This document shows, one piece after another, positions 3,825-62,066 of a DNA stretch of 64,000 nucleotides (the stretch's first letter is position 1; each line of letters begins with the position of its first letter). The stretch is taken from positions 1,772-65,771 of the forward strand of contig JAZOBD010000047.1 of the NCBI GenBank assembly GCA_045595825.1, in the 5' to 3' direction. A program made the position numbers and the translations under genes. Below the pieces are notes generated by a model. That model was given only the letters and a program-made list of their open reading frames with translations. It was not told the DNA's origin and searched no databases. Source of the stretch: Acutalibacteraceae bacterium (GTDB lineage: Bacteria; Bacillota; Clostridia; Oscillospirales; Acutalibacteraceae).

Positions 3825-4520
3825 ATGTCCTTTTTAGAAGTCACGGCTTTTTTGTTCGACGGCTTTAAAATATCTTTGCTTATCTTTGCGGTGACACTGC
3901 TTTGCGGTGCACCGCTTGGTTTGCCTATAGCCTTTTGTTCGATGAGCCGGTTTAAAACAGTCAAATCAATCTCAAAGGTGATTGTGTGGATTGTCAGAGG
4001 TATTCCTCTGATGCTTCAGATTTTCATTATTTATTACGTGCCCGGTCTGCTTTTCAACTATCAGCTTTTCGGCAAGATTGACCGATTCATGTTCATTGAA
4101 TACGGTATTTCCGATGCAGGCAGAATAACTGCTGTTCTTATTGCTTTCACAATCAATTACGCTTGTTATTTCTCCGAGATTTACAGAGGCGGTATTGAAA
4201 GCATTTCAAAGGGTCAGTATGAGGCGGGTTATGTGCTTGGCCTGACAAAATCGCAGATTTTCAGAAGAATCATTTTAAAGCAGGTTATTCAGCGTATTGT
4301 TCCGCCCATGTCGAATGAGATTATCACACTCATCAAGGATACCGCCCTTGCAAACTGCATTATGGTTTGTGAAATTATCAAGAATGCAAAGGAACTTGCG
4401 GCAACAAAGGCTTTGATCTGGCCTTTGTTCTTCACGGGCGTGTTCTACCTTGTGTTTGTCGGTATTCTGACGATTGTTCTCAACAAGACAGAAAAGAAGC
4501 TGAGCTATTTCGGGAGTTAA
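3825..4520 (+). CDS. Polar amino acid ABC transporter permease
   Basis: IVRGIPLMLQ and EIYRGGIESISKGQYEAG EAA loop; multiple TM segments. Confidence 0.92.
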   Translation: MSFLEVTAFLFDGFKISLLIFAVTLLCGAPLGLPIAFCSMSRFKTVKSISKVIVWIVRGIPLMLQIFIIYYVPGLLFNYQLFGKIDRFMFIEYGISDAGRITAVLIAFTINYACYFSEIYRGGIESISKGQYEAGYVLGLTKSQIFRRIILKQVIQRIVPPMSNEIITLIKDTALANCIMVCEIIKNAKELAATKALIWPLFFTGVFYLVFVGILTIVLNKTEKKLSYFGS

Positions 4521-4523
4521 ATT

Positions 4524-5309
4524 ATGCCTATATTAGAAGTAAGTAACATAAAAAAGAACTTCGGCAAAACCGAGGTTCTTAAAGACATAAGCTTTACACT
4601 CGAAAAGGGTGAAGTTCTTGCCATCATCGGTTCTTCGGGCAGCGGTAAAACAACGCTTCTGCGTTGCCTCAATTTCCTTGAAACCGCCGATAAGGGAAAA
4701 ATTGTTGTCAGCGGTGAAACCGTTTTTGACAGTGAGTCAGGTGTTAAGGAAAGTGCTGCTGAAAGATATGAAAAACAGAAAAAAATCGGTCTTGTTTTTC
4801 AGTCGTTTAACCTTTTTCCGCAGTATAACGTGCTTGAAAACGTAACGCTTGCACCGAAGCTGCACGCGAAAAAGCGACCCGATTATAAGCACAACAAAAA
4901 GCAGATTATTGCCGAAATTGAAAAGAAAGCTCTTGAAATTCTTGCCGATGTCGGTCTTTCCGACAAGGTTGAAAATTATCCCTGCCAGCTTTCCGGCGGT
5001 CAGCAGCAGCGTGTCAGCATTGCACGTGCGCTTGCGCTTAATCCCGAGATTCTTTTCTTTGACGAGCCTACCTCTGCTCTTGACCCCGAGCTTACGGGCG
5101 AGATTCTCAAAGTTATACGTGACCTTGCGGCAACAAAAATGACAATGGTTATTGTAACGCACGAAATGAAATTTGCACGTGACGTTGCTGACAAAATCAT
5201 TTTTATGGATGCAGGTATAATTGAAGAATCAGGCACACCCGAAGAGGTGTTTGACTTCACAAAATCCGAGCGTACAAAGGCTTTCATCGGTAAAATTGAA
5301 AGTAAATAA
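4524..5309 (+). CDS. Polar amino acid ABC transporter ATP-binding protein (GlnQ-like)
   Basis: GSSGSGKT Walker A, LSGGQQQRV signature, FDEPTSALDPE. Confidence 0.95.
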   Translation: MPILEVSNIKKNFGKTEVLKDISFTLEKGEVLAIIGSSGSGKTTLLRCLNFLETADKGKIVVSGETVFDSESGVKESAAERYEKQKKIGLVFQSFNLFPQYNVLENVTLAPKLHAKKRPDYKHNKKQIIAEIEKKALEILADVGLSDKVENYPCQLSGGQQQRVSIARALALNPEILFFDEPTSALDPELTGEILKVIRDLAATKMTMVIVTHEMKFARDVADKIIFMDAGIIEESGTPEEVFDFTKSERTKAFIGKIESK

Positions 5310-5367: not shown

Positions 5368-6210
5368 ATGAAATATCTTATACTCAATGCTGATGATTTC
5401 GGTTACAATCCGCAGCAGACGAAGGCGATAACCGAGCTTTATGAAAAAGGACTGATAACATCAACCTCGCTTATGACGGTCGCCGAAGATGCGTGTAATG
5501 CGGCGGAAATTGCCCGTGAAAAATCCTTCGCTGTCGGTGTGCACCTGACTGTCAACTCGGACAGTGCTTCAAATCCGTGGCAAAGCATAAGCGGTGCAAA
5601 ATCGCTGGGCACCGATGGACTTTACGAGTCGCAAAAAGACCTTGCCATTCACGCAACACGTGCGGATATCAGAAAAGAACTTGAAGCGCAATATGCTTTT
5701 CTTATTGCAAGCGGATGTACCGTTGACCACGCAGACAATCATTGCGGCACGCTTTACGGTATAAACGGAAGACGCTTTTTCATTGATGCATTTGATTTTT
5801 GCGCAAGGCACGGCTTGCCTTACAGATTTCCGAAAACGCCTTATTTTCTTGAACGTCAGCTTGGCAGAAAAATACCTCATGCCGTCGTTTTGCTTCAAAA
5901 AGCAATTGTTGGTTGCGGCGAAAAAAGGGGAGTAAAAATGCCGGATGACATTGTGCCGGACCCGCGCCCGATTGAGCAAATCGGCAGTTATGAAAACCTG
6001 AGAGAATATTACCTTGATGCGGTCAGAAGCTGTATTGAGGGTGTGACGGAAATGTTTTTTCATCCCGCTTACCCTCAGGATGACACTTTTGGCGGTTGGA
6101 CAAAGCGTGTTTATGAGTTTGAACTTCTGAAAAGCGGAGATATACTTGAGTGTGCCGCTGACAACGGTATTAAGGTTGTTTCCTGGTCAATTTTTGAAAA
6201 TATAGTGTAA
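5368..6210 (+). CDS. ChbG/HpnK (YdjC) family carbohydrate deacetylase
   Basis: LILNADDFG, GVHLT, DHADNHC and EMFFHP motifs. Confidence 0.85.
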   Translation: MKYLILNADDFGYNPQQTKAITELYEKGLITSTSLMTVAEDACNAAEIAREKSFAVGVHLTVNSDSASNPWQSISGAKSLGTDGLYESQKDLAIHATRADIRKELEAQYAFLIASGCTVDHADNHCGTLYGINGRRFFIDAFDFCARHGLPYRFPKTPYFLERQLGRKIPHAVVLLQKAIVGCGEKRGVKMPDDIVPDPRPIEQIGSYENLREYYLDAVRSCIEGVTEMFFHPAYPQDDTFGGWTKRVYEFELLKSGDILECAADNGIKVVSWSIFENIV

Positions 6211-6270
6211 AAAAGAAATTTCTGCACAAAATCTACGTGTTTTTTGCGGGAATTTTTTCTTTTTGTAATA

Positions 6271-6299
6271 TTGAATTGTTTTACTGTGCGTAGTATAAT
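6271..6299 (+). promoter_or_regulatory. SigA-type promoter of the S8 peptidase gene
   Basis: TTGAAT-17 nt-TATAAT. Confidence 0.65.
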
Positions 6300-6320
6300 G
6301 ATAATGGAGGAGGTGTAGCA

Positions 6321-8243
6321 GTGGAATTATTCAGAAAAATATCAGCTGTTTTTCTTGCTGTGTCGCTTTTGGCGGCAATGGCAGGCTCTTCCTTTGTCTC
6401 TGCGGCTGTTGACCCCAGATACGGCAACGAAAAATTCGGCACAAAATCCGCTCAGCTTGTCATTGAATATGATGAGTCTGAAAACACCCCTGCTGACAGC
6501 ACCGATTCTCCTTTGCGCCTTATCGGCAAAACCGTAAACTATGGCTTTGATTTGTCTTTGTACGGTGCCTGTGAATATATCAGATGCACAGACAACCGCT
6601 TTTTAATGCAGTTTGACAACATCAGTGCTTTTGAGGCGGCTTACAGTGCGCTTGATTCAGACCCTGATGTTGTATATGTTGACCGCGACTGTTACGTTGA
6701 ATCTTCGGCAATTTCAACCGTTATTGATGATTATCTTTCGTGGGGCACTACGGCAATCGGTGCCGATTTGTACTCACAGCATGTCGGCCGTGAAGCAGGT
6801 GACGGCGACGGCGTTGTTGTGGCTGTTATTGACTCGGGTGTTGCAGACATTGATTTCCTTGACGGCAGAGTTGTCGGCGGTTACGATTTCGTTGACAATG
6901 ATGCGGATGCCTCTGATGACGTCAACGCAAAAAGTCACGGCACACATATGTCAAGCATCATTGTTGACACTGCGCGCGATGTGCCCGTTTATATAATGCC
7001 CGTCAAGGTTATCGGCGAAAGCGACGGCGCGCTTGTTGACGTTATAAACGGAATTTATTACGCCGTTGACAACGGTGCGGATATTCTCAACATCAGCCTC
7101 GGCTACGATCAGGAGGATTGTGAGGCTTTTCACGACGCACTTGCTTATGCCTATTCAAAAGGTGTTACCTGCTGTGTTTCCGCAGGTAATGACGGCATTG
7201 ACTGTTCAGATTATTGCCCTGCTCACATCGAAAGCGCAATAACGGTTTCTGCCATTGATACAATAAATCTTTTCGGTGCCGGCCACTCAAATTTCGGCGC
7301 TTGTATTGATATTGCAATGCCCGGTATCGCCATTGCGGGATACAACGCACAGGGCAAGAGAATTACGGGCAGCGGCACCTCGATGGCGGCGGCTTTTGCT
7401 TCTGCCTCAGCGGCTCTGATAAAGCTTGCAAACCCCGGTTTCACACCCGATGACATCCGTCAGGCTCTCATTGACTGTGCCAAGGATCTGGGTGCTGAGG
7501 GCTTTGATAATTACTATGGCTACGGTCTGCCTCAGCTTTCGGCGTTGATGCCTGCGGTGGAGGGTATATCCCTTGATGTGACTGAGGTTCACCTTTCTGT
7601 CGGCGAAACCTTTACACCCACGGTTACGTTTATTCCTGCCAATGCAGGCAATCAGAACGTTATCTGGATTCCCGGCAAAAACGACGTTGTTCAGGTTGAC
7701 TCCGACGGAACTATCACAGCCGTTTCCGCAGGCGAAATGACAATGCTTGCAAGAACTGTTGAGGGCGGATTTATCGCAAGGTATTACATCACCGTAACGG
7801 GTGAAAATCCCGTTGCGCTTATCATGGATGATGAGTTCATCGATGAGCCGACAACTGAAGAAAAAACAACGGAAACTACAACCGGGCCGAAGCTTATAAA
7901 AGTTGACCCTGCGGCAAAGGCTGTAAGACTCACCCTTTCTCAGACGAAGCTTGCATACGGCGAAACCGCAAAAGTCAAAATCAGCGGTCTGCCTGCCGGC
8001 TATTATGCCAGATGCGTTTCCTCTGACTCAAGCGTTGCAATAATCAACGGCAACGGCCTTGTTGAGGCTGTCGGAATGGGTAAATCCGTTATAAAGGCAA
8101 CGATTGTTGACCCCGACGGATATGTCTGTGTTGATGAAAATGAAGAGCCGATTGTTGCAAAAGCCACTGTCAGATGTACGCTTACTTTCGGTCAGTTCCT
8201 CAAACAAGTTTTAAGTAAATTGTTTAATCTTAAATTCAAATAA
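6321..8243 (+). CDS. Secreted S8 subtilisin-family serine peptidase with two Ig-like (Big_2) domains
   Basis: Signal peptide; catalytic triad motifs VAVIDSG, HGTHM, SGTSMAA; C-terminal Big_2-like segments; GTG start with ggagg RBS. Confidence 0.9.
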   Translation: MELFRKISAVFLAVSLLAAMAGSSFVSAAVDPRYGNEKFGTKSAQLVIEYDESENTPADSTDSPLRLIGKTVNYGFDLSLYGACEYIRCTDNRFLMQFDNISAFEAAYSALDSDPDVVYVDRDCYVESSAISTVIDDYLSWGTTAIGADLYSQHVGREAGDGDGVVVAVIDSGVADIDFLDGRVVGGYDFVDNDADASDDVNAKSHGTHMSSIIVDTARDVPVYIMPVKVIGESDGALVDVINGIYYAVDNGADILNISLGYDQEDCEAFHDALAYAYSKGVTCCVSAGNDGIDCSDYCPAHIESAITVSAIDTINLFGAGHSNFGACIDIAMPGIAIAGYNAQGKRITGSGTSMAAAFASASAALIKLANPGFTPDDIRQALIDCAKDLGAEGFDNYYGYGLPQLSALMPAVEGISLDVTEVHLSVGETFTPTVTFIPANAGNQNVIWIPGKNDVVQVDSDGTITAVSAGEMTMLARTVEGGFIARYYITVTGENPVALIMDDEFIDEPTTEEKTTETTTGPKLIKVDPAAKAVRLTLSQTKLAYGETAKVKISGLPAGYYARCVSSDSSVAIINGNGLVEAVGMGKSVIKATIVDPDGYVCVDENEEPIVAKATVRCTLTFGQFLKQVLSKLFNLKFK

Positions 8244-8272
8244 AAAATGCACCCGTAGAGGGTGCATTTTTT
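8242..8272. terminator. Bidirectional intrinsic terminator
   Basis: aaaaaatgcaccc-gtaga-gggtgcatttttt between convergent genes. Confidence 0.85.
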
Positions 8273-8273
8273 G

Positions 8274-8711
8274 TTACAGATAAGGCTTCATCTTTTCAAC
8301 AAGATCTTCTTCGATTCTGATTATGTCATCAACGATTTTTTTGACATCTGGGTCTGCGTCGGAATATTCATTAAGGTACTTGTTGATGGATTTGATTCCC
8401 ATGCCGCAACCGTCGGTGATAAGGCTTGCTGCCTGCGCCTCATTTGGTTTAACTGTCATCTCGGCGTTGATTTTGATTTTTGACATTCCCTTTGCCATGA
8501 TGTTCGGTTCTTTCCCGTTTGCGTTGATTTTTTTCAGGGCTTCGTCAACGTCTTTTTCAATCGCCTTGTGTTCTGCTCTGTTCGCTGTCAGGATTTTTTT
8601 GAATTTTTCATCTGCAACGTAGGGCATCACGTCGTCAATTGAGGTGACTGCCGTTTTGATTCCCGCACTGCATTCTCTCAGCAGGTGCAGGGTGTCTGCA
8701 CTGTTTTTCAT
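8274..8711 (-). CDS. Conserved ferritin-like (DUF2383-like) four-helix protein
   Basis: All-helical 145 aa with LLRECSAGIK and ITDGCGMGIKS motifs; ggagg RBS before ATG 8711. Confidence 0.6.
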   Translation of the reverse strand: MKNSADTLHLLRECSAGIKTAVTSIDDVMPYVADEKFKKILTANRAEHKAIEKDVDEALKKINANGKEPNIMAKGMSKIKINAEMTVKPNEAQAASLITDGCGMGIKSINKYLNEYSDADPDVKKIVDDIIRIEEDLVEKMKPYL

Positions 8712-8770
8712 AACAATTCCTCCCGTCAATAAAAGTATTGCCGGAAAACTGTTGTTTATAAGTAAAAATT

Positions 8771-8802
8771 AAAGGCGTAACGAATTCTCGCTACGCCTTT
8801 TT
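8771..8802. terminator. Intrinsic terminator downstream of the acyl-CoA synthetase gene
   Basis: aaaggcgta...tacgccttt imperfect stem flanked by A/T tracts. Confidence 0.6.
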
Positions 8803-8805
8803 GCT

Positions 8806-11127
8806 TTATTGCTGACTGTAAGCCTCGTCTTTGAGAACCGTTCTCATAATTTTGCCGCTGATTGTCTTGGGCAGTTTTTTGCGGAACTCAATAATTCTGG
8901 GATATTTGTAAGGTGCGGTGTTTTCTTTGACATATTTCTGAATGTCTTTTTTGAGCTCGTCGGTCGGCTCTGTGCCTTCTGTGAGCACGATAACGGCTTT
9001 TACAACCTGACCTCTGATTTCGTCGGGGGCGGGGATAACGGCACATTCAAGTACATAAGGCAGTTCCATAATAACGTTTTCAATCTCAAACGGGCCAATG
9101 CGGTAGCCTGATGATTTGATAAGGTCATCGACTCTGCCGACATACCAGAAGAATCCGTCCTCGTCACGCCATGCGGTGTCGCCGGTGTGATAAATGTCGT
9201 CGTGCCATACCTCGTCGGTGCGTACACGGTCGTTGTAATAGCTCTTGAAAAGACCGTTGGGTGTGTGATACTTTGTGCCGATAACAATTTCACCGACCTC
9301 GCCGATACGGGCAGGTGTACCGTCAGCGGTGAGAATGTCAACATCAAACAGGGGGCTGGGCTTGCCCATTGAGCCGGGTTTGATGGGTGTGCCGACAAAG
9401 TTGCCGATGACAAGTGTTGTTTCGGTCTGACCGAAGCCTTCCATAAGTCTGAGACCCGTTGCCTTGAGGAATTGCTGGAAAACCTCGGGGTTGAGTGCTT
9501 CACCCGCTACGCAGGCATATTTGATTGAACGCAGGTCATATTTTGAAAGGTCTTCTTTAATGAAGAATCTGAACATTGTGGGGGGCGCACAGAATGTTGT
9601 GATGTTGTACTTTGCAAACATCGGCAGAATTTCATGTGCATCAAAACGGTCAAAGTCATAGGTGAATACGGGAGCTTCGCAAAGCCACTGACCGTAAAGC
9701 TTGCCCCAGAGGGCTTTACCCCAACCTGTGTCGGAAATTGTGAAATGCAATCCGTTGGGGTCAACGTTGTGCCAGTATTTTGCGGTGATGAAATGACCGA
9801 GTGCATATTTGAAATTGTGAGCGGCGATTTTGGGATATCCGGTTGTGCCCGATGTGAAGAACATGAGCATTGTGTCACTGCCGCAGGGACATTCGTCTCC
9901 TTCGGGGCGGGGGAATTCGTCGCCGTGTTTATCAAACTCTGCATCAAAATCGTGCCAGCCGTCACGTTTGCCGCCGACAAGAATAAGGTTGTTGATGCTG
10001 TCGGTTTCTTTTGCTGCTGCTTCAACGTGTGTTGCAACGTCACCGTCGGCGGTGCAGACGATTGCGCTGACGCCTGCTGCCTTGAAGCGGTAGTCAAAGT
10101 CGTGCTTTACAAGCTGATTTGTTGCGGGGATTACAACCGCGCCGATTTTGTGAAGCGCAAGAATTGAGAACCAGAACTGATAATGACGTTTCAGAACAAG
10201 CATAACGCGGTCGCCGCGCTTGATGCCGAGTGAGCGGAAATAGTTTGCCGTCATTGAGGAATAGCGGCTCATATCGCCGAATGTGAAACGTCTTTCCGTT
10301 TTATCGTTTGCAATGTGCAGCATTGCAAGTTTGTCGGGACACTTGCGTGCAAGCTCGTCAACAACGTCGTAAGCAAAGTTGAAGGTTTCGTCGTTGTTGA
10401 ATTCAATGTCGCAAAGAACGCCGTTTTCATCTGTCTTTGTGTGGATGAAATGCTCGTAAACGGGGTCAACAAGGTTTGCGAGGTCTGTGTTTGTGGTTGA
10501 TGCAGTTTCAAGACGCTCTTTGTAATCGTTAAGAGACGTTCCGTCGGGGCTGATGACAATTGCATAAAATTCGCAGTCTTCACCGCCGACGGCGATTTCG
10601 GTGTGAGGAGTTGACGAATCAAAATAGATGCAGTCACCCTCGTTGAGTATTTCGGTTGCGTCACCGATAATCATTTTCATTGTGCCGCGGATTATAATGT
10701 TGATTTCCTGACCCTCGTGCGTTACCATCTTGTAAGGGGGATTAAGACCCTCAACGGTGTAAGGAATGACAACCCTGAAGGGCTCGGCAATCTTGTTTTT
10801 AAAATAAGGTGCAAGACGGTTGTACTCAAAGCCGTGACGGCGCACGATGGGGTTGCTTTCGCCCTTGCGTGTGATTGAGTATTCGGTAAGGCTGGGGGTA
10901 AGACCCTCCATGATTTCGGTCATTTCAACGCCGCAGACGTTGGCGATTTTGTAGATAAAAGTAAAGCTGAAATCGGTTTTACCTGCCTCAAAATTTACAT
11001 ATTCTTCGGTGGATATACCGATTCTTGTCGCCATTTCTTCAGCCGTCAGACCCATGTCTTCACGGATTGCGGTAATTCGGCCGGCTACCTCCTTGATTTT
11101 TGTTTCAATCATGAACTGGTTTTCCAT
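8806..11127 (-). CDS. Fusion of XRE-HTH/cupin regulator domain with a medium-chain acyl-CoA synthetase (AMP-binding)
   Basis: N-terminal HTH plus cupin (HEGQE, YFDSSTPH); FTSGTTGYPK, SDTGWGKALWGKLYGQW, GFGQTET, IKSSGYRIGPFEIE and PKTISGKIMR; start ATG 11127 after aaggagg. Confidence 0.88.
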   Translation of the reverse strand: MENQFMIETKIKEVAGRITAIREDMGLTAEEMATRIGISTEEYVNFEAGKTDFSFTFIYKIANVCGVEMTEIMEGLTPSLTEYSITRKGESNPIVRRHGFEYNRLAPYFKNKIAEPFRVVIPYTVEGLNPPYKMVTHEGQEINIIIRGTMKMIIGDATEILNEGDCIYFDSSTPHTEIAVGGEDCEFYAIVISPDGTSLNDYKERLETASTTNTDLANLVDPVYEHFIHTKTDENGVLCDIEFNNDETFNFAYDVVDELARKCPDKLAMLHIANDKTERRFTFGDMSRYSSMTANYFRSLGIKRGDRVMLVLKRHYQFWFSILALHKIGAVVIPATNQLVKHDFDYRFKAAGVSAIVCTADGDVATHVEAAAKETDSINNLILVGGKRDGWHDFDAEFDKHGDEFPRPEGDECPCGSDTMLMFFTSGTTGYPKIAAHNFKYALGHFITAKYWHNVDPNGLHFTISDTGWGKALWGKLYGQWLCEAPVFTYDFDRFDAHEILPMFAKYNITTFCAPPTMFRFFIKEDLSKYDLRSIKYACVAGEALNPEVFQQFLKATGLRLMEGFGQTETTLVIGNFVGTPIKPGSMGKPSPLFDVDILTADGTPARIGEVGEIVIGTKYHTPNGLFKSYYNDRVRTDEVWHDDIYHTGDTAWRDEDGFFWYVGRVDDLIKSSGYRIGPFEIENVIMELPYVLECAVIPAPDEIRGQVVKAVIVLTEGTEPTDELKKDIQKYVKENTAPYKYPRIIEFRKKLPKTISGKIMRTVLKDEAYSQQ

Positions 11128-11162
11128 TAAAATCGGTTCCTCCTTCTTTAAAAATTTGTAAA

Positions 11163-11425
11163 AAAATAACCGTCCCAAAGCTTTTGACTTTGAGACGGGT
11201 TAAATCAAAAATACCCGCGGTACCACTCAAATTGCATCAATGATGCCACTCACAGGCTCAAACAAGCCCACAACCTTAACGCGGTCAGACGGGGGTAACT
11301 AATTGTAAGATACTTTCATAACCCCGGCTCGGAAGTGATAGCTGATGGAACGCTTCATTACCGACTTTCAGCAAAATGTCGGCTCTCTGTGAAATCGGCA
11401 GCTCCGGCTTTCTTCGTCACAGCCT
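11163..11425 (-). promoter_or_regulatory. T-box riboswitch leader, specifier ATC (Ile)
   Basis: Minus strand: AGAGAG and GCTGAAA stem I boxes, specifier cagct-ATC-a-cttc (11339-11337), T-box aatttgagTGGTACCgcgg (11233-11214), terminator ccgtctcaaag/ctttgggacgg plus T tract. Confidence 0.85.
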
Positions 11426-11445
11426 TTGCTTTTGTTCAATTGTAT

Positions 11446-11474
11446 AGGATAAACTATTTTTTTTGCTTTGTCAA
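11446..11474 (-). promoter_or_regulatory. SigA-type promoter of the T-box leader
   Basis: TTGACA-17 nt-TATCCT on the minus strand just upstream of stem I. Confidence 0.65.
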
Positions 11475-11610
11475 CACAAATTTTAATTTTTTTTGCGGCA
11501 AACATCTTGTGGTAATAAATGTTTAACAATCAGGTAACATTTTGTTGTTTACATTAAGCGGAAGAATGTTATAAAATTATTAAACCGAATCTTTTATGAA
11601 AGGAAAGAAA

Positions 11611-13161
11611 ATGAAAATGAAAAAATCCCGCAAAATCCTCGCTCTCCTGCTTTCGCTGATTATGCTTGTCGGTGCGATAAGCGTGTCTGCAAGTGCGGCG
11701 GAAGAAACTCCTCCCGCCAATGTTTTTACCGAAACGGAGCCAAACAACACTCCCGAAGCAGCTGACGAAATAGAACTGCTTACCGAAGTGTCAGGCAATC
11801 TGAATGCCGGTAATGCTGATTGGATTGACGTTGACTGGTATAAAGTCAGCGTTGAGCAGTCCGGCGTTTTGTCGGTTGAGTTTACTCACCCCGTTTTTGA
11901 ATCGCTGCTCAGTTATTATACCGTTGATGTTATCGGTGTTGACGGCGGAAATGAATTTCTGCTTTCAAGTACAATATCTCTTGGGACGGACGGAAAAATC
12001 ACTACCGTCGGCAGTCTTGTTGCTTCGGGTACATATTATGTACGTGTGACGGGCGGAGATGTTGTCAGCGAAGACGGTTATACGCTGACGGTTACGCTCG
12101 GTCAGTCACGTGACGGTGAAACCGAGCCCAACAATACTTTTGCAGAGGCTGATATAATAAGTACGGATTCAGGTGCGGCTTACTTCGGTTCAATCGGCGC
12201 CGCAGACGATATTGATTTGTACGCTTTCAATCTTGCCGCAAAGGGTTATGTTGATATTTCGGTTTCGGACGATTCCGCTGCTGCGGGCAACGCCGAATAT
12301 ACAGTAAGCGTTATGAAATTCGGTTCAGGTGAAGCTGTTGCGCCCGAGACGGTTGCCGTTTTTGTCACCGATTCAGCCAAACCGGGAACAACCTTCCCCA
12401 GGCTCGGTCTTGAAGCAGGCACTTATTTTGTGAAAGTTGAAATCAGCGGCAATTTTGTTGGAAACTCTGCTTACGCTTTAAGCGTGAAAGCTTCTGCTTA
12501 TGCTTTTTATGAAACAGAAGTGAATGACAACTGGCAAACAGCTGACGTTTTCGATGCAACCGTAAACACGGGTGACTCGTACACAGGCACTTTCACAAAT
12601 AATATTTATGCAAATCTGAGCGGCAAAAACGATGCTGACTGGTTTGCCGTTTCACACAATTCTTCGGGAGTAAGCTCCGTTGATGTCATTGTCAGGGTTG
12701 ATGCAGGTGCAAATGCAGACAACTGGAAAGTAGAGCTATATAATTCGGGGCTGCTTTCTCAGCCTGCGGATACTTACGACATTTCGTCTTATGCCGTACC
12801 TTTTGAGAAAAACGTCAAAGGCGGCAGTGCCTTATTCAACACAGACACGGATATAGTGTGCAAGGTTGATACTGCTTCTTATTCGGGCGACAAGCTTGTT
12901 GTCAGGGTTTACTGTGACGGAGAAGAGGTTGATACATCAATGTATACGGTAATCTGTGTTGTCAGTGTCGATAACACCCCTGAAAAGAGCTGGTTTGAAA
13001 ACCTTCGAGATTATTTCAAGGGACTTTCTCAGATTGAATGGCCGTTCCTTTCCGAGCTTATCGGCAAAGTTTTCGAAGATTTCACCTTTGATACGGTGCT
13101 CGGTCTTATCGGTAATGTCGGTTCACAACTTATTAAGTTCCTTTTTAATTTCCTCGGCTGA
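11611..13161 (+). CDS. Secreted protein with three PPC-like (ETEPNN) beta-sandwich repeats and an amphipathic C-terminal tail
   Basis: Signal peptide ending ASA-A; repeats FTETEPNNT, GETEPNNT, YETEVNDN each followed by D.D.(Y/F); no catalytic motif seen. Confidence 0.7.
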   Translation: MKMKKSRKILALLLSLIMLVGAISVSASAAEETPPANVFTETEPNNTPEAADEIELLTEVSGNLNAGNADWIDVDWYKVSVEQSGVLSVEFTHPVFESLLSYYTVDVIGVDGGNEFLLSSTISLGTDGKITTVGSLVASGTYYVRVTGGDVVSEDGYTLTVTLGQSRDGETEPNNTFAEADIISTDSGAAYFGSIGAADDIDLYAFNLAAKGYVDISVSDDSAAAGNAEYTVSVMKFGSGEAVAPETVAVFVTDSAKPGTTFPRLGLEAGTYFVKVEISGNFVGNSAYALSVKASAYAFYETEVNDNWQTADVFDATVNTGDSYTGTFTNNIYANLSGKNDADWFAVSHNSSGVSSVDVIVRVDAGANADNWKVELYNSGLLSQPADTYDISSYAVPFEKNVKGGSALFNTDTDIVCKVDTASYSGDKLVVRVYCDGEEVDTSMYTVICVVSVDNTPEKSWFENLRDYFKGLSQIEWPFLSELIGKVFEDFTFDTVLGLIGNVGSQLIKFLFNFLG

Positions 13162-16116: not shown

Positions 16117-16650
16117 ATGAGCAATATCTGGCACGACATCAGCCCGCGCAGAATTTCCTGCGACGATTTCATCGCCGTTATCGAAATCTCAAAGGGCAGC
16201 AAAAGAAAGTATGAACTTGACAAGGAAACGGGCATGCTTATACTTGACCGTATCCTTTACACTTCCACGCATTATCCTGCAAATTACGGGTTTATTCCGC
16301 GCACCTACGGCGATGACGAAGACCCGCTTGACGTTGTTGTCATTTGCAGTGAAGAGCTTGCGCCTCTTACCCTTGTGCGTTGCTATCCCATCGGCGCAAT
16401 CACAATGAAAGACGGAGGCAAGTTTGACGAAAAAATCATCTGTATTCCGTTCAATGACCCCAACTACAATACCTACGGTGATATTACTGACCTTCCTGCC
16501 CATCTGTTTGATGAAATGAAGCACTTTTTCTCTGTCTACAAAACTCTTGAAGGCAAGGAAACAGTGGTTGATGAGGTGCGCGACCGTCAGGAGGCAACCC
16601 GCATCATTGCACAGGGTATTGACAACTATATTCAGAAATTTTGCCGATAA
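16117..16650 (+). CDS. ppa: Family I inorganic pyrophosphatase
   Basis: YPANYGFIPRTYGDDEDPLDV and DEKI signatures. Confidence 0.93.
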   Translation: MSNIWHDISPRRISCDDFIAVIEISKGSKRKYELDKETGMLILDRILYTSTHYPANYGFIPRTYGDDEDPLDVVVICSEELAPLTLVRCYPIGAITMKDGGKFDEKIICIPFNDPNYNTYGDITDLPAHLFDEMKHFFSVYKTLEGKETVVDEVRDRQEATRIIAQGIDNYIQKFCR

Positions 16651-16654
16651 CGAA

Positions 16655-16685
16655 ACAAAAAGCAGACGCTCAGTCTGCTTTTTGT
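16655..16685 (+). terminator. Intrinsic terminator after ppa
   Basis: acaaaaagcagac-gctca-gtctgctttttgt. Confidence 0.85.
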
Positions 16686-16831
16686 CGTTTGTTGTAGAAT
16701 ATTACCAAAAGTTACCCCGTAATGCAGTTACATTTTTAAACAGCGGCAAGCTCTTGTTTGCTTGACTTGTTAAATAATTATATGATATACTATATGCAGT
16801 ATTTTTATTGCTGCTTAAGGAGGTATGTCTT

Positions 16832-17326
16832 GTGAAAAAAATCGGAATTGTAATGGGCAGCGACAGCGATTTGCCTGTCGTTGAAAAAGCATTCAATACG
16901 CTTGACGAATTCGGTGTACCTTACGAGGTGCATGTTTTCTCTGCGCACAGAACACCTGAGCAGGCAAGGGAATTTTCTGCAACTGCGCGCGCAAACGGAT
17001 TCGGCGCAATTATTGCCGCCGCCGGCAAAGCTGCACACCTTGCAGGTGCCATTGCCGCAAACACCACTCTGCCTGTTATCGGCATCCCTGTAAAATCATC
17101 AACACTTGACGGCATTGATGCGCTTTTGTCAACCGTTCAGATGCCTGCGGGTATTCCCGTTGCCACGGTTGCTATTGACGGCGCTGTCAATGCCGCTTTG
17201 CTTTGTATACAGATTCTTGCCGTTGAGGACAGCGACCTTGCACAAAAGCTTGACGCATCCCGTGCGGCAGCCGCACAGAAAGTTCTTGTAAAAAACGCTG
17301 AAATTTCAGCAAGATTCAATAAATAA
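16832..17326 (+). CDS. purE: N5-CAIR mutase / AIR carboxylase catalytic subunit
   Basis: [23 protein letters not shown] and STVQMP; GTG start after aaggagg. Confidence 0.95.
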
Positions 17327-17342
17327 TCGGGAGGAACAAAAA

Positions 17343-18026
17343 ATGAACAAGCTCGTTTACAAAGGAAAAACAAAGGATGTCTTCGCACTCGAAAACGGCA
17401 ACTATCTTCTTAAATTCAAAGATGACGTTACAGGTGCAAACGGTGTTTTTGACCCCGGCGCAAATACAGTCGGTCTGAGCATTGATGGCGTAGGTAACCT
17501 CAATCTCAGAATGTCAATCTATTTCTTTGAAAAGCTCAAGGAAGCAGGCATCAAAACACATTACGTAAGTGCAAACCTTGATGACACAACAATGGAAGTT
17601 CTTCCTGCAAAGGTATTCGGTAAGGGTCTTGAGGTTATTTGCAGACATAAGGCTGTCGGCAGCTTCATCCGTCGCTACGGCGATTATATCGAAGAAGGCG
17701 CTGACCTTCCCGCTTACGTTGAAATGACTTTCAAAGATGACGACAGAGGCGATCCCCTCGTAACAAAAGAAGGACTTATCGCTCTTAATGTTATGACTGA
17801 CGAGCAGTATGAATCTGTCAAGGCTATGACCCAGGAAATCACACAGATCGTTGCTGACGAGCTTCTTAAAAAGGGTCTTGTCCTTTATGACATCAAGTTT
17901 GAATTCGGTTACAGCGGCGACGAAGTTATTCTCATTGACGAAATCGCTTCCGGCAACATGAGAGCTTACAAAGACGGCAAGTATATCGAGCCTCTTGAGC
18001 TTTCCGAAATTTTCTTCGCTGAATAA
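17343..18026 (+). CDS. purC: SAICAR synthetase
   Basis: [22 protein letters not shown] and DIKFEFG...DEI. Confidence 0.9.
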
Positions 18027-18058
18027 TCATAAACCTGAATCAATCCGGAGGCATGTAT

Positions 18059-19507
18059 ATGTGTGACCTTAACAACAAGCTCCACGAAGAGTGCGGTGTG
18101 TTCGGCATTTTTGTTCCCACACGTCAGGACGTTGCGCACTCTGCTTATTACGGACTTTATGCTCTTCAACACAGGGGACAGGAGAGCTGCGGCATTGTTG
18201 TAAACGATGACGGCGTTTTCCACTCCTTCAAAGATATCGGCCTTGTCAATGATGCAATCACAACCGAAACAATGGAAGAGCTCGGCCCCGGTAACATGGC
18301 AATCGGCCACGTGCGTTACGGTGCGCTTGGCACAGACCCGCGCCTGAGTGCTCAGCCCGTCGTTGTTGAGCACATCAAGGGCAGAATGGCGCTTGCCAAC
18401 AACAGTGCACTTATCAACTACTACGAGCTTCGTGAAGAGCTTGAGCTTGAAGGCTCGATTTTCCACACCACAAGCGATGCGGAAATTTTTACCTACATCA
18501 TTACCAAAGAGCGTCTTACCGCACCCTCAATCGAAGAGGCTGTCAACAGGGCAATGTGCAAAATCAAGGGTGCATATTCATTTGTTGTCATGTCACCGTC
18601 AAAGCTTATTGCCGCAAGGGATGAGCGCGGCTTCAAGCCCCTTTGCTACGGTGTGCTCGATGACGGCGGATACGTTGTCGCTTCCGAAAGCTGTGCGCTT
18701 GATTCAATCGGCGCAACACTTGTGCGTGAGCTTGACCCCGGTGAAATCCTTGTTTTCACAAAGGACGGCGTCAAGAGCATACGCGACCACTGCGACAAGG
18801 CTCCTTCGTCTTTTTGCATTTTTGAATATCTTTATTTTGCACGTCCCGACTCGATAATTGACGGTCTTTCCGTCCACAGCGCAAGACTCCGTGCAGGTGC
18901 ATTCCTTGCGCTCGAACATCCCGTTCAGGCAGATGTCGTAATCGGTGTTCCCGACTCCGGTCTTGATGCCGCAATCGGTTATTCAAGACAGTCAGGCATT
19001 CCTTACGGTCTGGGCTTCATCAAAAACAAATACATCGGCAGAACATTCATTGCGCCCGGTCAGGCTTCTCGTGAAGACAAGGTAAAGATTAAACTTAACC
19101 CCATCAGCGAAACAGTCAAGGGCAAGCGAGTTGTTCTTGTTGATGACTCAATCGTCAGAGGCACAACCTGTGCAAGAATTGTCAAGCTTCTGCGTGATGC
19201 GGGTGCAACCGAGGTTCATATGCGTTCCTCAGCTCCTGCGTTCAAATATGTCTGCCATTACGGCACCGACATCGAATCCGAAAAGGTACTTATCGCAAGA
19301 CAGCATACGCTTGAGGAAATCAAAGAAATCCTCGGCGTAGATTCCATCGGTTTCCTGAGCGTTGAAAACGCACCCAAAATCGCCAACGGCTGTGCACGCA
19401 ATTATTGCCTTGCCTGCTTTAACGGCGAATATCCGACCGAAATCCCCTGCAAAAAACAACAAAGAAAATATGAAAAAAAGATTTCTGAAAGTGAGGCTGC
19501 AATATGA
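18059..19507 (+). CDS. purF: Amidophosphoribosyltransferase (Fe-S type)
   Basis: Propeptide then CGVFG, QHRGQES, VLVDDSIVRGTT and four Fe-S Cys; atypical glutamine site (see findings). Confidence 0.92.
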   Translation: MCDLNNKLHEECGVFGIFVPTRQDVAHSAYYGLYALQHRGQESCGIVVNDDGVFHSFKDIGLVNDAITTETMEELGPGNMAIGHVRYGALGTDPRLSAQPVVVEHIKGRMALANNSALINYYELREELELEGSIFHTTSDAEIFTYIITKERLTAPSIEEAVNRAMCKIKGAYSFVVMSPSKLIAARDERGFKPLCYGVLDDGGYVVASESCALDSIGATLVRELDPGEILVFTKDGVKSIRDHCDKAPSSFCIFEYLYFARPDSIIDGLSVHSARLRAGAFLALEHPVQADVVIGVPDSGLDAAIGYSRQSGIPYGLGFIKNKYIGRTFIAPGQASREDKVKIKLNPISETVKGKRVVLVDDSIVRGTTCARIVKLLRDAGATEVHMRSSAPAFKYVCHYGTDIESEKVLIARQHTLEEIKEILGVDSIGFLSVENAPKIANGCARNYCLACFNGEYPTEIPCKKQQRKYEKKISESEAAI

Positions 19508-20538
19508 ACAGTTTCAGTGAAAGCTACAAAGCCGCGGGCGTAGATATTACTGCGGGTTACAAAGCCGTTGAGCTTATGAAAAAACACATTGCCAGAACAC
19601 TTACCGCGGGCGCAATGTCCGACATCGGCGGTTTTGGCGGCCTTTTTGAACTTGATCTGACGGGTATTTCAAAGCCCGTTCTTGTCAGCGGTACTGACGG
19701 CGTCGGCACAAAGTTAAAGCTTGCGTTTATTATGGACAAGCACGACACAGTCGGCATTGACTGCGTTGCAATGTGTGTCAATGACATCATCTGCTGCGGC
19801 GCAAAGCCTCTTTTCTTCCTTGATTACATTGCCTGCGGCAAAAACGTTCCCGAAAGAATTGCTGACATCGTTGCCGGTGTTGCAGAGGGTTGCGTCCAGG
19901 CAGGTGCCGCTCTTATCGGCGGTGAAACCGCTGAAATGCCCGGCTTCTATCCCGTTGATGAATATGACCTTGCAGGCTTCTCTGTCGGTGTTGTCGACCG
20001 TGATAAGGTTGTTGACAACAAAAAAATCAAGGTCGGTGACGCTATTGTCGCACTTCCTTCCAGCGGCGTACATTCAAACGGCTTTTCTCTTGTGAGAAAA
20101 GTTTTTGACGTTGAAAACAAAGACATCAAAACTCCCGTTGCAGAGCTTGGCGGCAAATCAATCGGCGAGGCACTTCTTGCTCCCACCGTTATTTATGTCA
20201 AGCCCATGCTCAACCTCTTTGATAACGTAACAGTCAAGGCTGTTTCACACATCACAGGCGGCGGTTTCTATGAAAATATTCCCAGAAGCATTCCCGCAGG
20301 CTTTGCCGCAAAAATCGAAAAAGCGGCAGTCAGAACTCTGCCCATCTTTGATATGATTGCAAAAGCAGGCGACGTCTGTGAGCGCGATATGTTCAATACA
20401 TTTAATATGGGTGTCGGCATGAGCTGTGTTGTCAGTGCCGAAGAGGCTGATAAGGCTGTTGCCACACTTAAAGCAAACGGTATTGATGCTTATATCATGG
20501 GCGAAGTTGTCAGCGGCGAGGGTGTTGAGTTATGCTAA
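19504..20538 (+). CDS. purM: AIR synthetase (phosphoribosylformylglycinamidine cyclo-ligase)
   Basis: YKAAGVDI, GTDGVGTK, GGETAEMPG and SGVHSNGFS. Confidence 0.96.
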   Translation: MNSFSESYKAAGVDITAGYKAVELMKKHIARTLTAGAMSDIGGFGGLFELDLTGISKPVLVSGTDGVGTKLKLAFIMDKHDTVGIDCVAMCVNDIICCGAKPLFFLDYIACGKNVPERIADIVAGVAEGCVQAGAALIGGETAEMPGFYPVDEYDLAGFSVGVVDRDKVVDNKKIKVGDAIVALPSSGVHSNGFSLVRKVFDVENKDIKTPVAELGGKSIGEALLAPTVIYVKPMLNLFDNVTVKAVSHITGGGFYENIPRSIPAGFAAKIEKAAVRTLPIFDMIAKAGDVCERDMFNTFNMGVGMSCVVSAEEADKAVATLKANGIDAYIMGEVVSGEGVELC

Positions 20539-21140
20539 AAGCAAAAATCGCCGTCCTTGTTTCGGGCGGCGGCACCAATTTGCAGGCGCTCATTGATGCG
20601 CAGAGCAGCGGTATAATCAAAAGCGGTGAAATCGCAGTTGTCATTTCCAACAATGCTGATGCCTATGCACTCACCCGTGCAAAAAATGCGGGTATTGCAA
20701 CGGCAACCGTCATCAAAAAGGAATGTGCATCGCAGGCTGAGTTTGAAAGCAGAATAATTGACATTCTCAATGAAAATGAGATTGATCTTATTGTGCTTGC
20801 AGGCTTTATGTGTATTCTCAGCGCAGATTTCACACGCCGCTACGATGAAAGAATTGTCAACGTACATCCGTCACTTATTCCGTCTTTTTGCGGCAAGGGC
20901 TTTTACGGCCTGCGCGTGCACGAGGCGGCACTTGAATACGGTGTCAGGGTGACGGGTGCAACCGTTCATTTTGTAAATGAAATTCCCGACGGCGGCAGAA
21001 TCATTCTGCAAAAGGCTGTCGCAATCCGTAAGGGTGACACACCGAAAACTCTTCAGAAAAGAGTTATGCAGCAGGCAGAGTGGAAGATTCTTCCCAAAGC
21101 CGTTGAACTTGTTTCAAAAGATATTATTGCAGGAAAATAA
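20532..21140 (+). CDS. purN: GAR transformylase
   Basis: VSGGGTNLQA, VNVHPSLIP and TGATVHFV. Confidence 0.95.
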   Translation: MLKAKIAVLVSGGGTNLQALIDAQSSGIIKSGEIAVVISNNADAYALTRAKNAGIATATVIKKECASQAEFESRIIDILNENEIDLIVLAGFMCILSADFTRRYDERIVNVHPSLIPSFCGKGFYGLRVHEAALEYGVRVTGATVHFVNEIPDGGRIILQKAVAIRKGDTPKTLQKRVMQQAEWKILPKAVELVSKDIIAGK

Positions 21141-21160
21141 GAAAGGTAAGGTAAGCAAAA

Positions 21161-21886
21161 ATGAGCATTTACGAGTGCGCCGATATCGGCAAGATTCTCA
21201 GCGAGAATACATATCCCGGCAGAGGAATCATTGTGGGCAAATCTGCTGACGGAACAAAGGCGGTTTCTGCATATTTCATTATGGGCAGAAGCGAAAACAG
21301 CCGTAACCGTGTTTTTGAAGAAAAAAAAGATGAAATCAAAATCCTTCCCTTTGACGCATCAAAGGTTGAGGATCCCTCTCTCATTATTTACTACCCCGTG
21401 CGCAAGTTTGAAGACACCCTTGTTGTAACAAACGGTGACCAGACAGATACGGTTTATGATTTCATTAAAGAGGGCAAAACCTTTGAGCAGGCGCTTGAAA
21501 CACGTTGTTTTGAGCCCGATGCCCCCAACTTCACACCTAGAATCAGCGCACAGCTTACCGAAAAAGACGGTGCTTTCACTTACAAAATGAGCATCCTCAA
21601 AAGCAACGATGCCGTTGGCAGTGATTGCAACCGTTACACCTTTACTTATGCTCCCGTTAACGGTGTCGGCCACTTTATCCACACCTATAACCACGACGGT
21701 AACCCCATCCCCACTTTCACAGGTGAGCCTGAAAGAATCGAAATTGTTGATGATATTAACGAGCTTGCCGAAAAAATTTGGGCAAATCTTAATCCTGACA
21801 ATAAAATTTCTCTTTATGTCCGCTATTTCGACCTTGCGACCGGCGCTTGTGAAACCAGACTTTACAACAAGCATTTAGGAAATTAA
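21161..21886 (+). CDS. IMP cyclohydrolase-like protein (PurO-like Ntn fold)
   Basis: YPGRGI, YFIMGRSENSRNR, TNGDQTD and FEPDAPNFTPRIS; located in the pur operon. Confidence 0.8.
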   Translation: MSIYECADIGKILSENTYPGRGIIVGKSADGTKAVSAYFIMGRSENSRNRVFEEKKDEIKILPFDASKVEDPSLIIYYPVRKFEDTLVVTNGDQTDTVYDFIKEGKTFEQALETRCFEPDAPNFTPRISAQLTEKDGAFTYKMSILKSNDAVGSDCNRYTFTYAPVNGVGHFIHTYNHDGNPIPTFTGEPERIEIVDDINELAEKIWANLNPDNKISLYVRYFDLATGACETRLYNKHLGN

Positions 21887-21900
21887 CGGAGGATTTTAAA

Positions 21901-23085
21901 ATGAAAGAATTTGAACTCAAATACGGTTGTAACCCCAACCAGAAACCCGCCAAAATTTATATGCACGACGGCACAGAGCTCCCCATTGAGATTTTGTCCG
22001 GCCGTCCCGGTTACATTAATTTCCTTGATGCTTTCAATTCCTGGCAGCTTGTCAAGGAAATCAAAGCGGCACTCAATATGCCTGCCGCAACATCATTCAA
22101 ACACGTCAGCCCCACATCTGCGGCTGTCGGCACACCCCTGAGCGATACACTCAAAAAAGCCTGCTTTGTTGATGATATCGAAGGTCTTGACGATTCTCCG
22201 CTTGCCTGCGCTTATGCAAGAGCAAGAGGCACGGACAGAATGTCCTCATACGGCGACTGGATTGCCCTGAGCGATGTTTGTGACGTTACAACCGCCAACA
22301 TCATCAAACGCGAGGTTTCCGACGGCATCATTGCCCCCGGATATGAGCCCGAAGCACTTGAAATTCTCAAAACAAAGAGAAAGGGTACATACAATATCAT
22401 TAAAATCGATCCCGATTTTATTCCCGACCCTCAGGAAATCAAGCAGGTTTTCGGCATTACCTTTGAGCAGGGCAGAAACAATTTCAAAATTGATAACTCC
22501 TTGCTTGAAAATCTTGTAACAGAAAATAAAGGGCTTCCCGACAGCGCAAAGCGTGACCTCATTATTGCGCTCATCACTCTTAAATATACACAGTCCAATT
22601 CCGTTTGCTACGCCGTTGACGGTCAGGCAATCGGTGTCGGCGCAGGTCAGCAGTCAAGAATTCACTGCACACGTCTTGCCGGCAATAAGGCTGACATCTG
22701 GCACTTAAGACAGCATCCGAAAGTGCTTAATCTTCAGTTTGTTCCCACAATCGGCAGAGCAGACAGAGACAACACGATTGATACATATATTTCCGATGAA
22801 TTTGAAGATGTTCTCGGCGATGACGTATGGCAGAATTTCTTCGCAGTCAGACCCGAACCCTTCACCAAGGAAGAGCAGAAGGCATGGCTTGCACAGATTA
22901 ACGGTGTTGCCCTCGGCAGTGACGCATTCTTCCCCTTCGGCGACAACATTGAGCGTGCACGCAAGAGCGGTGTTACCTACGTTGCACAGCCCGGCGGCTC
23001 TGTCAGAGATGACCACGTCATTATGACCTGCAATAAATATAAAATGGCAATGGCATTCACCGGAATGCGCCTTTTCCATCACTGA
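21901..23085 (+). CDS. purH: AICAR formyltransferase (PurH C-terminal domain only)
   Basis: LKYGCNPNQ, SFKHVSP, KYTQSNS and SDAFFPF; lacks the N-terminal MGS/IMPCH domain. Confidence 0.88.
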   Translation: MKEFELKYGCNPNQKPAKIYMHDGTELPIEILSGRPGYINFLDAFNSWQLVKEIKAALNMPAATSFKHVSPTSAAVGTPLSDTLKKACFVDDIEGLDDSPLACAYARARGTDRMSSYGDWIALSDVCDVTTANIIKREVSDGIIAPGYEPEALEILKTKRKGTYNIIKIDPDFIPDPQEIKQVFGITFEQGRNNFKIDNSLLENLVTENKGLPDSAKRDLIIALITLKYTQSNSVCYAVDGQAIGVGAGQQSRIHCTRLAGNKADIWHLRQHPKVLNLQFVPTIGRADRDNTIDTYISDEFEDVLGDDVWQNFFAVRPEPFTKEEQKAWLAQINGVALGSDAFFPFGDNIERARKSGVTYVAQPGGSVRDDHVIMTCNKYKMAMAFTGMRLFHH

Positions 23086-61786: not shown

Positions 61787-61799
61787 ACTTGCAATGTTA

Positions 61800-62066
61800 A
61801 ACGCGTTGACCAAGAGAGTAAGCAGATTCTTGGCGCACCCCAGAGAGGATATGCGTGGCTGAAACATATCCGTGCGTTGGTTTGCCGAAGTTCACTTGTT
61901 AGCGGTGCGGCTGAAGCTTTTTGTTGTAGGTCGCAACGGTTTGCAACCGTTACCGTGCAAAAAACGCCATCGTGCGTTTGTGAGTGTCTGCCCTTGCGGC
62001 AGGAATATGGGTGGTACCGCGGAGTCGTCTTCGTCCCAATCAGGAACGAAGACGTTTATTTTTTTA
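61800..62066 (+). promoter_or_regulatory. T-box riboswitch, specifier TTC (Phe)
   Basis: AGAGAG/GCTGAAA boxes, gaag-TTC-a-cttg at 61891-61893, aatatgggTGGTACCgcgg at 62004-62022, terminator cgtcttcgt/acgaagacg plus T tract. Confidence 0.93.

Follow-up and report, generated by a model that had tools for sequence, protein, structure and literature searches.

In a 64,000-nt stretch of contig JAZOBD010000047.1 from an Acutalibacteraceae bacterium (hereafter the window), the minus strand encodes a T-box leader whose specifier codon reads AUC (Ile), followed by a single gene for a 773-aa protein in which an acyl-CoA synthetase is preceded by a helix-turn-helix (HTH) and cupin module. With a probability of roughly two in three, the locus is a single-gene transcription unit attenuated by an isoleucine-specific T-box, its enzyme feeding 2-methylbutyrate into isoleucine synthesis. 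This interpretation draws on the anatomy of the leader, on the close relationship of the enzyme to a synthetase that prefers 2-methylbutyrate, and on paralogues in related genomes whose leaders carry valine or leucine specifiers and whose operons encode a 2-ketoisovalerate:ferredoxin oxidoreductase (VOR) and often the branched-chain aminotransferase IlvE.

Read along the minus strand, the locus consists of a promoter-like site, a leader of ~300 nt, the sequence AGGAGG, a single open reading frame (ORF), and a strong terminator, which lies directly past the gene, indicating that the unit is monocistronic. The encoded protein is 95% identical to the 773-aa protein P0001. The features of the unit, in the order of transcription, are as follows.

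11446..11474, minus strand: promoter-like site TTGACA-17 nt-TATCCT (consensus scan, 10 of 12 matches; a consensus match only)
11188..11429, minus strand: T-box leader comprising Stem I, Stem II, Stem IIA/B with F-box, Stem III, and antiterminator (Rfam RF00230)
11326..11424, minus strand: Stem I, with K-turn GGCUGUGACGAAG ... CUUCCGAGCC and a reduced specifier loop (Infernal alignment)
11412..11424, minus strand: 5′ strand of the K-turn, GGCUGUGACGAAG (alignment to the model and sequence)
11383..11390, minus strand: AG bulge, ACAGAGAG (alignment to the model)
11365..11376, minus strand: distal loop, GCUGAAAG (alignment to the model)
11337..11339, minus strand: specifier AUC (Ile), followed by A at 11336 (Infernal alignment)
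11292..11325, minus strand: Stem II (alignment/sequence)
11277..11284, minus strand: F-box, CCGCGUUA (alignment/sequence)
11234..11247, minus strand: Stem III (alignment/sequence)
11214..11233, minus strand: T-box sequence, AAUUUGAGUGGUACCGCGGG (alignment/sequence)
11160..11198, minus strand: intrinsic terminator with a 12-bp stem, a 5-nt loop, and a U-run (terminator scan; minimum free energy and centroid folds)
11139..11144, minus strand: ribosome-binding site AGGAGG, 11 nt before the ATG (read from sequence)
8806..11127, minus strand: coding sequence of the HTH-cupin-acyl-CoA synthetase fusion, 773 aa, with ATG at 11127 and stop codon at 8806..8808 (ORF and translation, Pfam)
10912..11070, minus strand: XRE-type HTH, aa 20-72 (PF01381, E 3e-10; helical in the AlphaFold2 model, pLDDT 84-95)
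10558..10722, minus strand: cupin beta-barrel, aa 136-190 (PF07883, E 2.6e-11; strands in the AlphaFold2 model, pLDDT 82-92)
8851..10356, minus strand: AMP-forming acyl-CoA synthetase (AMP-binding aa 258-631, AMP-binding_C aa 681-759; Pfam, 3ETC)
8771..8800, minus strand: gene-end terminator with a 13-bp stem and a T-run (terminator scan)

T-box leader and specifier codon

In a permissive scan of 11050..11650, the leader aligned to the full RF00230 model (positions 1-219) with 91.1 bits and an E-value of 1.4e-20. The platform elements of Stem I agree with the model, including the UGA...GA K-turn, the AGAGA of the AG bulge, and the GCUGAAAG distal loop. Further downstream, the conserved T-box sequence presents a UGGN bulge, and all 69 homologous leaders share UGGUACCGCG unchanged. 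For the UGGU at 11222..11225, the predicted partner is ACCA at the 3′ end of a tRNA, which fits a discriminator A73. The terminator hairpin spans 11170..11198 and is followed by the U-run at 11160..11169; its 5′ arm, as read from the sequence, is also the 3′ arm of the antiterminator (common letters CCCGUCUCAA), so that the two structures are mutually exclusive. The minimum free energy of the whole leader is no better than that of shuffled sequences (z -0.71), as expected for a bistable leader, and this value was not used as evidence.

The Infernal alignment places AUC-A on the codon-plus-purine columns of the model, directly 5′ of CUUC, which pairs with GAAG. The codon thus occupies the 3′ end of the specifier loop with one unpaired base after it, in agreement with the TBDB rule, by which the codon is read at positions 2-4 when the specifier bulge is counted from its 3′ end (PMC7778990). 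Among isoleucine T-boxes, 99% use AUC (PMC7778990). Both flanking helices covary in the homologous leaders: GAAG/CUUC, GAGG/CCUC, GGAG/CUCC, GAAA/UUUC, and GAAAA/UUUUC below the codon, and GGUC/GACU, GGCA/UGCU, GGAC/GUCC, and GGAA/UUCC above it (67 leaders). As positive controls, the same rule gave UUC for the second T-box of the window, located before pheS, and CUC for T-boxes before leuA-like genes in related loci. The frame of the codon is therefore fixed by the agreement among the Infernal alignment, the helix covariation, and the UUC and CUC controls. The first-pass annotation, made from the letters alone, had proposed a complete T-box with an ATC (Ile) specifier ahead of an acyl-CoA synthetase gene; both the codon and the position of the RF00230 match upstream of the coding sequence bear this out.

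The control T-box in the window is canonical (61797..62041, plus strand, 110.8 bits, specifier UUC for Phe) and lies directly upstream of pheS (62084..63148, plus strand), the product of which contains tRNA-synt_2d and Phe_tRNA-synt_N domains.

Throughout the family of homologous leaders, the specifier sits in a minimal internal loop whose 5′ strand has 0-2 nt and whose 3′ strand holds the codon and a further 1-2 nt, and in 67 leaders a covarying helix abuts the codon in place of the S-turn. Judged from these alignments, the family may represent a structural subclass of T-boxes in which the specifier is presented in a minimal loop without an S-turn.

The acyl-CoA synthetase

The closest solved relative of the enzyme is MacsMa of Methanosarcina acetivorans (PDB 3ETC), which it matches with 639 bits and 52.7% identity over 528 columns. 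Both the AMP-binding and the C-terminal domains are present, and the core motifs are intact, namely SGTTGYPK (426), GFGQTET (564), YHTGD (646), and PKTISGKI (753). Residues W452, W469, K471, W474, C513, and G566 correspond to W237, W254, K256, W259, C298, and G351 of the MacsMa acyl pocket and are identical at all six positions; these are the residues reported to form the pocket by Meng et al. 2010. The likeness to MacsMa initially suggested by the motif DTGWGKALWGKLYGQW (aa 466-481) thus holds at the level of the best PDB relative and of the pocket. Trp259 has been confirmed as a pocket residue of MacsMa, an enzyme that prefers 2-methylbutyrate and completes the two-step reaction with this substrate (PMC10455477).

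The top NCBIfam family is MbcS of Staphylococcus aureus (NF047394), which selectively activates 2-methylbutyrate and isobutyrate (PMC10026030). The match of 427.8 bits is below the equivalog cut-off of 850 bits, indicating that the window protein is a relative of MbcS and not an equivalog. From these homologies, the enzyme is most likely a MacsMa-type synthetase for short- and medium-chain branched acyl groups, converting 2-methylbutyrate to 2-methylbutyryl-CoA.

Distribution of the gene family and its leaders

In the gut and rumen, the fusion occurs frequently among Oscillospiraceae, Ruminococcus, and Acutalibacteraceae. At least 595 stretches of species-representative genomes encode a relative, and all 120 best database matches share the four-domain architecture. 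Public databases list the protein as 'AMP-binding protein', 'acetyl-CoA synthetase', or 'XRE regulator'. Cultured carriers include Ruminococcus flavefaciens SAb67, Neglectibacter timonensis SN17, and R. champanellensis; the last belongs to the 90% cluster of protein P0021, whose locus has an AUC T-box of 91.6 bits.

A census covered 87 gene copies from 80 GTDB loci plus the window (81 loci), sorted by the T-box directly upstream. Specifier calls were automatic, with truncated or atypical leaders read by eye or from Infernal alignments. Homologous leaders precede most orthologues, and the specifier was AUC (Ile) in 61 of the 87 copies, GUA (Val) in 6, and CUG (Leu) in 1, so that AUC accounts for 61/68 called orthologous leaders; 14 of 87 copies had no upstream T-box and 5 of 87 lay at a contig end.

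An Rfam scan of four of the loci without a T-box returned no known RNA family. In a Ruminococcus clade of such loci (L011, L013, L014, L016, L017, L019, L023, L027, L028, L031, L034, and L042), likewise devoid of Rfam matches, the gene at ~6001 is preceded by a near-consensus promoter (TTGACA ... TGnTATAAT) and a leader of 60-235 nt, the 5′ end of which, GUAAGC, can pair with GCUUGC/GCUUAC between the ribosome-binding site and the start codon; L013 carries a compensatory variant of this pairing (CAAGU/ACUUG). The clade may use another kind of regulatory leader, one in which the start region is sequestered. In locus L067, a 6S RNA (RF00013, 55.5 bits) is located at 4788..4976 on the minus strand, ~700 nt upstream of the Ile T-box.

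Valine- and leucine-type paralogues and their operons

Isoleucine, valine, or leucine specifiers are linked to this enzyme family throughout, and the copies with valine or leucine specifiers are linked to VOR and IlvE genes. In loci L050, L052, L066, L067, L075, and L080, a T-box(Ile)-synthetase unit is followed by a T-box(Val)-synthetase gene heading a VOR operon, in the order P-loop nucleoside triphosphatase (NTPase), 2x[4Fe-4S] ferredoxin, VorB, thiamine pyrophosphate-binding beta subunit, and gamma subunit; in L050 and L052, IlvE and a LeuA-like gene are added to the Val operon. In L079, a T-box(Leu)-synthetase gene is followed by the same VOR genes, IlvE, and LeuA. The annotations of VorB (533 bits vs 399) and IlvE (499 vs 307) pass their NCBIfam cut-offs. 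VOR and a branched-chain aminotransferase, the predicted partner enzymes of the route, occur with the ligase in operons of Val/Leu-type paralogues in 7 GTDB loci and in many metagenome loci.

The pattern was replicated in an independent set of 80 metagenome loci, for which contigs were scanned with an alignment of seven Val/Leu-type proteins, copies were typed by their N-terminal domain, and four specifier calls were corrected by eye. Val-type copies carried 57 GUA, 5 GUC, and 1 AUC specifiers (62/63 called read Val), and all called Ile-type copies (33/33) carried AUC; where the contig extended at least 3.5 kb beyond a Val-type copy, vorB lay downstream in 38/52 cases. Many of these contigs represent near-identical strains, so that the counts are not independent events, and the pattern spans proteins of 66-81% identity.

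The synthetases linked to Val/Leu specifiers differ from the Ile-linked ones beside the pocket, with G255A in 5/6, T353S in 6/6, and N239C in 5/6 (MacsMa numbering), and the catalytic domains cluster by genome, not by type. The sole exception to the type rule is L101 (~4140..4467), where a copy with a Val-type N-terminus lies behind an AUC leader; this arrangement may reflect a deletion or recombination joining an Ile leader to a Val copy, or a chimeric contig. In L111, L114, L120, L131, and L151, a second tandem copy of Val type follows after a short spacer without its own T-box, and both copies would be under the control of the upstream leader.

The P-loop NTPase (~225 aa; L050 6049..6732) is encoded in every case after the Val-type synthetase and before the ferredoxin subunit of VOR; homologues are present in L052, L066, L067, L075, L079, L080, and many of L084-L163. 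It has weak CbiA/ParA/NUBPL-like Pfam matches and no NCBIfam family, and may help VOR to mature or supply it with Fe-S clusters. LeuA-like genes (HMGL-like and LeuA_dimer domains) near synthetase loci bear their own CUC (Leu) T-boxes (L051 630..846; L057 1440..1682; L069 1106..1343; L073 1439..1684; L070 242..511), among which the L070 leader closely resembles the synthetase leaders (159 bits to their hidden Markov model).

The N-terminal HTH-cupin module

The description of the window protein as an acyl-CoA synthetase in the first-pass annotation is correct for the synthetase domain and overlooked residues 1-245, which form an HTH_3 and Cupin_2 module (Pfam) fused ahead of it, in the domain order of XRE-cupin regulators. 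Sequence comparison of this module with the PDB gave no match, and relatives emerged from fold comparison alone: the top Foldseek matches of the AlphaFold2 model (pLDDT 75, with the HTH and cupin domains confident and the linker not) were the HTH+cupin proteins HppE and the Vibrio regulator 1Y9Q, at E ~1e-10. The module also has a weak match to PuuR. As read from the sequence, the classic metal-binding His pattern of cupins looks incomplete.

Within one genome, the N-terminal modules of Ile-type and Val/Leu-type proteins are ~45% identical, whereas modules of one type from different genomes share 54-62% identity; those of the Val/Leu type group into a single clade, and in the metagenome set the N-terminal type predicted the specifier almost perfectly. 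Since it is this module, not the catalytic domain, that separates the Ile type from the Val/Leu type, it may carry a type-specific function. The module probably adds ligand-dependent control, perhaps as a second level. A more specific proposal, hinted at by this separation of types and put forward only tentatively, is that the fusion is a bifunctional enzyme and sensor with two amino-acid-specific control layers, tRNA charging being read by the T-box and a small molecule by the cupin. In such an arrangement, the cupin would sense either the cognate amino acid or the corresponding keto acid or branched acid, and would gate the enzyme allosterically, or else the HTH would bind DNA in the manner of BirA or PutA.

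Proposed mechanism and alternative explanations

By analogy with the known T-box mechanism, uncharged tRNA-Ile (anticodon GAU) would pair through its anticodon with the AUC specifier in Stem I and through its free ACCA end with the UGGU in the T-box bulge, thereby stabilizing the antiterminator over the terminator at 11170..11198 and allowing transcription of the gene; the gene would in this way be induced by isoleucine limitation. The enzyme, its substrate being predicted from homology, would then convert exogenous 2-methylbutyrate to 2-methylbutyryl-CoA. The operon partners of the paralogues in related genomes suggest both the following steps and the direction of carbon flow: VOR, encoded elsewhere in the genome, would reductively carboxylate 2-methylbutyryl-CoA to 2-keto-3-methylvalerate, and IlvE would transaminate the latter to isoleucine. 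An AMP-forming ligase, a carboxylating oxidoreductase, and a branched-chain transaminase under induction by uncharged tRNA match what the reductive carboxylation route needs. It is well documented that rumen anaerobes build isoleucine from 2-methylbutyrate, valine from isobutyrate, and leucine from isovalerate (PMC7356843; PMC10658910). A catabolic role, with VOR and IlvE degrading valine, was considered and rejected, since neither induction by uncharged tRNA nor the use of an AMP-forming ligase fits degradation; both indicate a biosynthetic direction.

Several observations weigh against this interpretation. The leader score is 2 bits short of the RF00230 gathering threshold of 93, which is why a scan of the whole window at that threshold missed it and reported the T-box at 61797..62041 as the sole one; scores of homologous leaders range from 73 to 99 bits, around the same threshold. 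The S-turn letters AGUA/GAA of the Rfam consensus are absent, the window having AAAGC and CAGCU there, and their absence from the minimal loop probably accounts for the borderline scores. The 14 orthologues without a T-box belong mainly to Ruminococcus. At the level of the pathway, the neighbours of the Ile-type gene are not conserved across the 81 loci (largest neighbour cluster 8/81) and the gene is monocistronic, so that its link to the pathway rests on the paralogues. The search for VOR proposed in the first-pass annotation succeeded in the Val/Leu paralogue operons of related genomes and found none in the window, where tblastn likewise detected no ilvE or leuA; tRNA genes, including tRNA-Ile, are also absent from the window. 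With respect to expression, the lone metatranscriptome with signal shared 7% of words and is uninformative, and metatranscriptome contigs are mostly 90-95% relatives, from which hardly more can be learned than that the family is transcribed in gut communities. Finally, the tandem copies of L066 (3398..5647, Ile; 6001..8295, Val) have synthetase domains that are 99.6% identical and HTH-cupin modules that are 46.7% identical, suggesting either that the pocket alone may not set specificity or that the assembly collapsed; the pattern would stem from such a collapse or from a recent gene conversion confined to the catalytic part.

Among other explanations, the most plausible, if still improbable, is that 2-methylbutyryl-CoA mainly primes anteiso branched-chain fatty acids when isoleucine, the usual source of the primer, is scarce. 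Ruminococci are said, from Allison's work, to incorporate branched acids into both lipids and amino acids, and the Ile-type gene stands alone without VOR nearby. The top NCBIfam match, MbcS, also has a role in branched-chain fatty acid priming from exogenous acids (PMC10026030), but this match, at 428 bits, falls far short of the 850-bit cut-off. Moreover, the Val/Leu paralogues are in operons with VOR and IlvE, not with fab genes, and a separate valine-specific switch fits amino acid supply better; the two fates of the acyl-CoA could also coexist.

Two further explanations, the second somewhat less probable than the first, are considered quite unlikely. Reductive carboxylation of propionate to 2-oxobutyrate is a known route to isoleucine in anaerobes, and the enzyme could serve it by supplying propionyl-CoA, with 2-oxobutyrate then entering the IlvBN/C/D steps. 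MacsMa adenylates propionate, but it fails to complete the thioester with many non-preferred substrates, unlike with 2-methylbutyrate (PMC10455477); in addition, the acyl pocket of the window enzyme is identical to that of MacsMa, and the parallel Val/Leu paralogues have no analogous straight-chain precursor. Alternatively, the protein could be primarily a transcription factor, with the synthetase domain as ligand sensor and the T-box only tuning the dosage of the regulator. The HTH_3 and Cupin_2 domains, the designation of a homologue in one source as 'transcriptional regulator, XRE family with cupin sensor', and the fact that the N-terminal domain tracks specifier type more cleanly than the enzyme domain are consistent with such a role, but all the motifs for adenylation and thioester formation, like the pocket, are as well conserved as in an enzyme, and the operon context is enzymatic. 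For HppE, a fold match of the module, the HTH-like domain is not known to bind DNA.

Relation to known systems and significance

The leader shares its overall architecture and terminator/antiterminator logic with the isoleucine T-boxes of Firmicutes ileS and ilv-leu operons, and departs from the RF00230 consensus in the very small specifier loop of its family, which lacks AGUA/GAA. Its target is an acyl-CoA synthetase fusion and not a tRNA synthetase, a biosynthetic operon, or a transporter. Like MacsMa, the window enzyme has a Gly at the position of Acs Trp416; unlike the archaeal protein, it has both an HTH-cupin extension and a T-box. MbcS of S. aureus feeds fatty acid priming and lacks the N-terminal module, and no T-box on MbcS came up in the literature examined. 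The module has the domain order and fold of XRE-HTH+cupin proteins (PuuR-type, V. cholerae 1Y9Q, HppE), but these are two-domain proteins, whereas here the module is fused to an enzyme. The paralogue operons encode a CoA ligase, VOR with ferredoxin, and IlvE, a set that agrees with the biochemically described route from branched acids to amino acids (PMC7356843), to which the classical work assigned no genes.

An earlier T-box survey makes no mention of an acyl-CoA synthetase target (PMC2494555). No paper linking a T-box to an acyl-CoA synthetase was found, although Vitreschak et al. 2008, Robinson & Allison 1969, or TBDB entries possibly mention one; the literature searched also contained no report of tRNA-sensing control of the entry step for branched acids and no gene assignment for the entry enzyme and its regulation in bacteria that use them. 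Taken singly, T-box control, ligases of the MacsMa type, and the physiological route are already known. What appears to be new is the combination of T-box, ligase, and pathway, together with the fusion architecture, the assignment of Ile/Val/Leu roles from specifiers, and the minimal specifier loop.

Branched-chain volatile fatty acids are required by cellulolytic ruminococci and many gut Clostridia, and the biochemistry by which such acids are turned into isoleucine, valine, and leucine has been described since the 1960s. Each specifier codon is in effect a label that comes with the gene; in one enzyme family, these labels assign amino acid specificity to hundreds of copies, and they point towards a full pathway (ligase, VOR, and IlvE) that can be put to the test. 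If the interpretation is true, these genes would provide markers of branched-acid dependence in rumen and gut metagenomes, with bearing on isoacid feed supplements and cross-feeding; the list of T-box targets would be extended to a salvage enzyme; and natural Ile/Val enzyme pairs would become available for the study of substrate selection. R. champanellensis, R. flavefaciens, and Neglectibacter timonensis are experimentally usable cultured carriers.

Other features of the window

Upstream of the unit and divergent from the T-box promoter, 11596..13161 (plus strand) encodes a 521-aa protein with an apparent N-terminal signal sequence and no Pfam family. On the other side are a 151-aa ORF of no family (8274..8729, minus strand) and an S8 subtilase with Big_2 domains (6321..8243, plus strand). 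Unrelated to the T-box finding, an inorganic pyrophosphatase followed by a purine biosynthesis cluster is located at 16117..23085 (plus strand), the cluster encoding AIR carboxylase, SAICAR synthetase, amidophosphoribosyltransferase, AIR synthase, GAR formyltransferase, an IMP cyclohydrolase-like protein, and AICARFT. An ORF of 2347 aa lies further along the window (32317..39360, plus strand).

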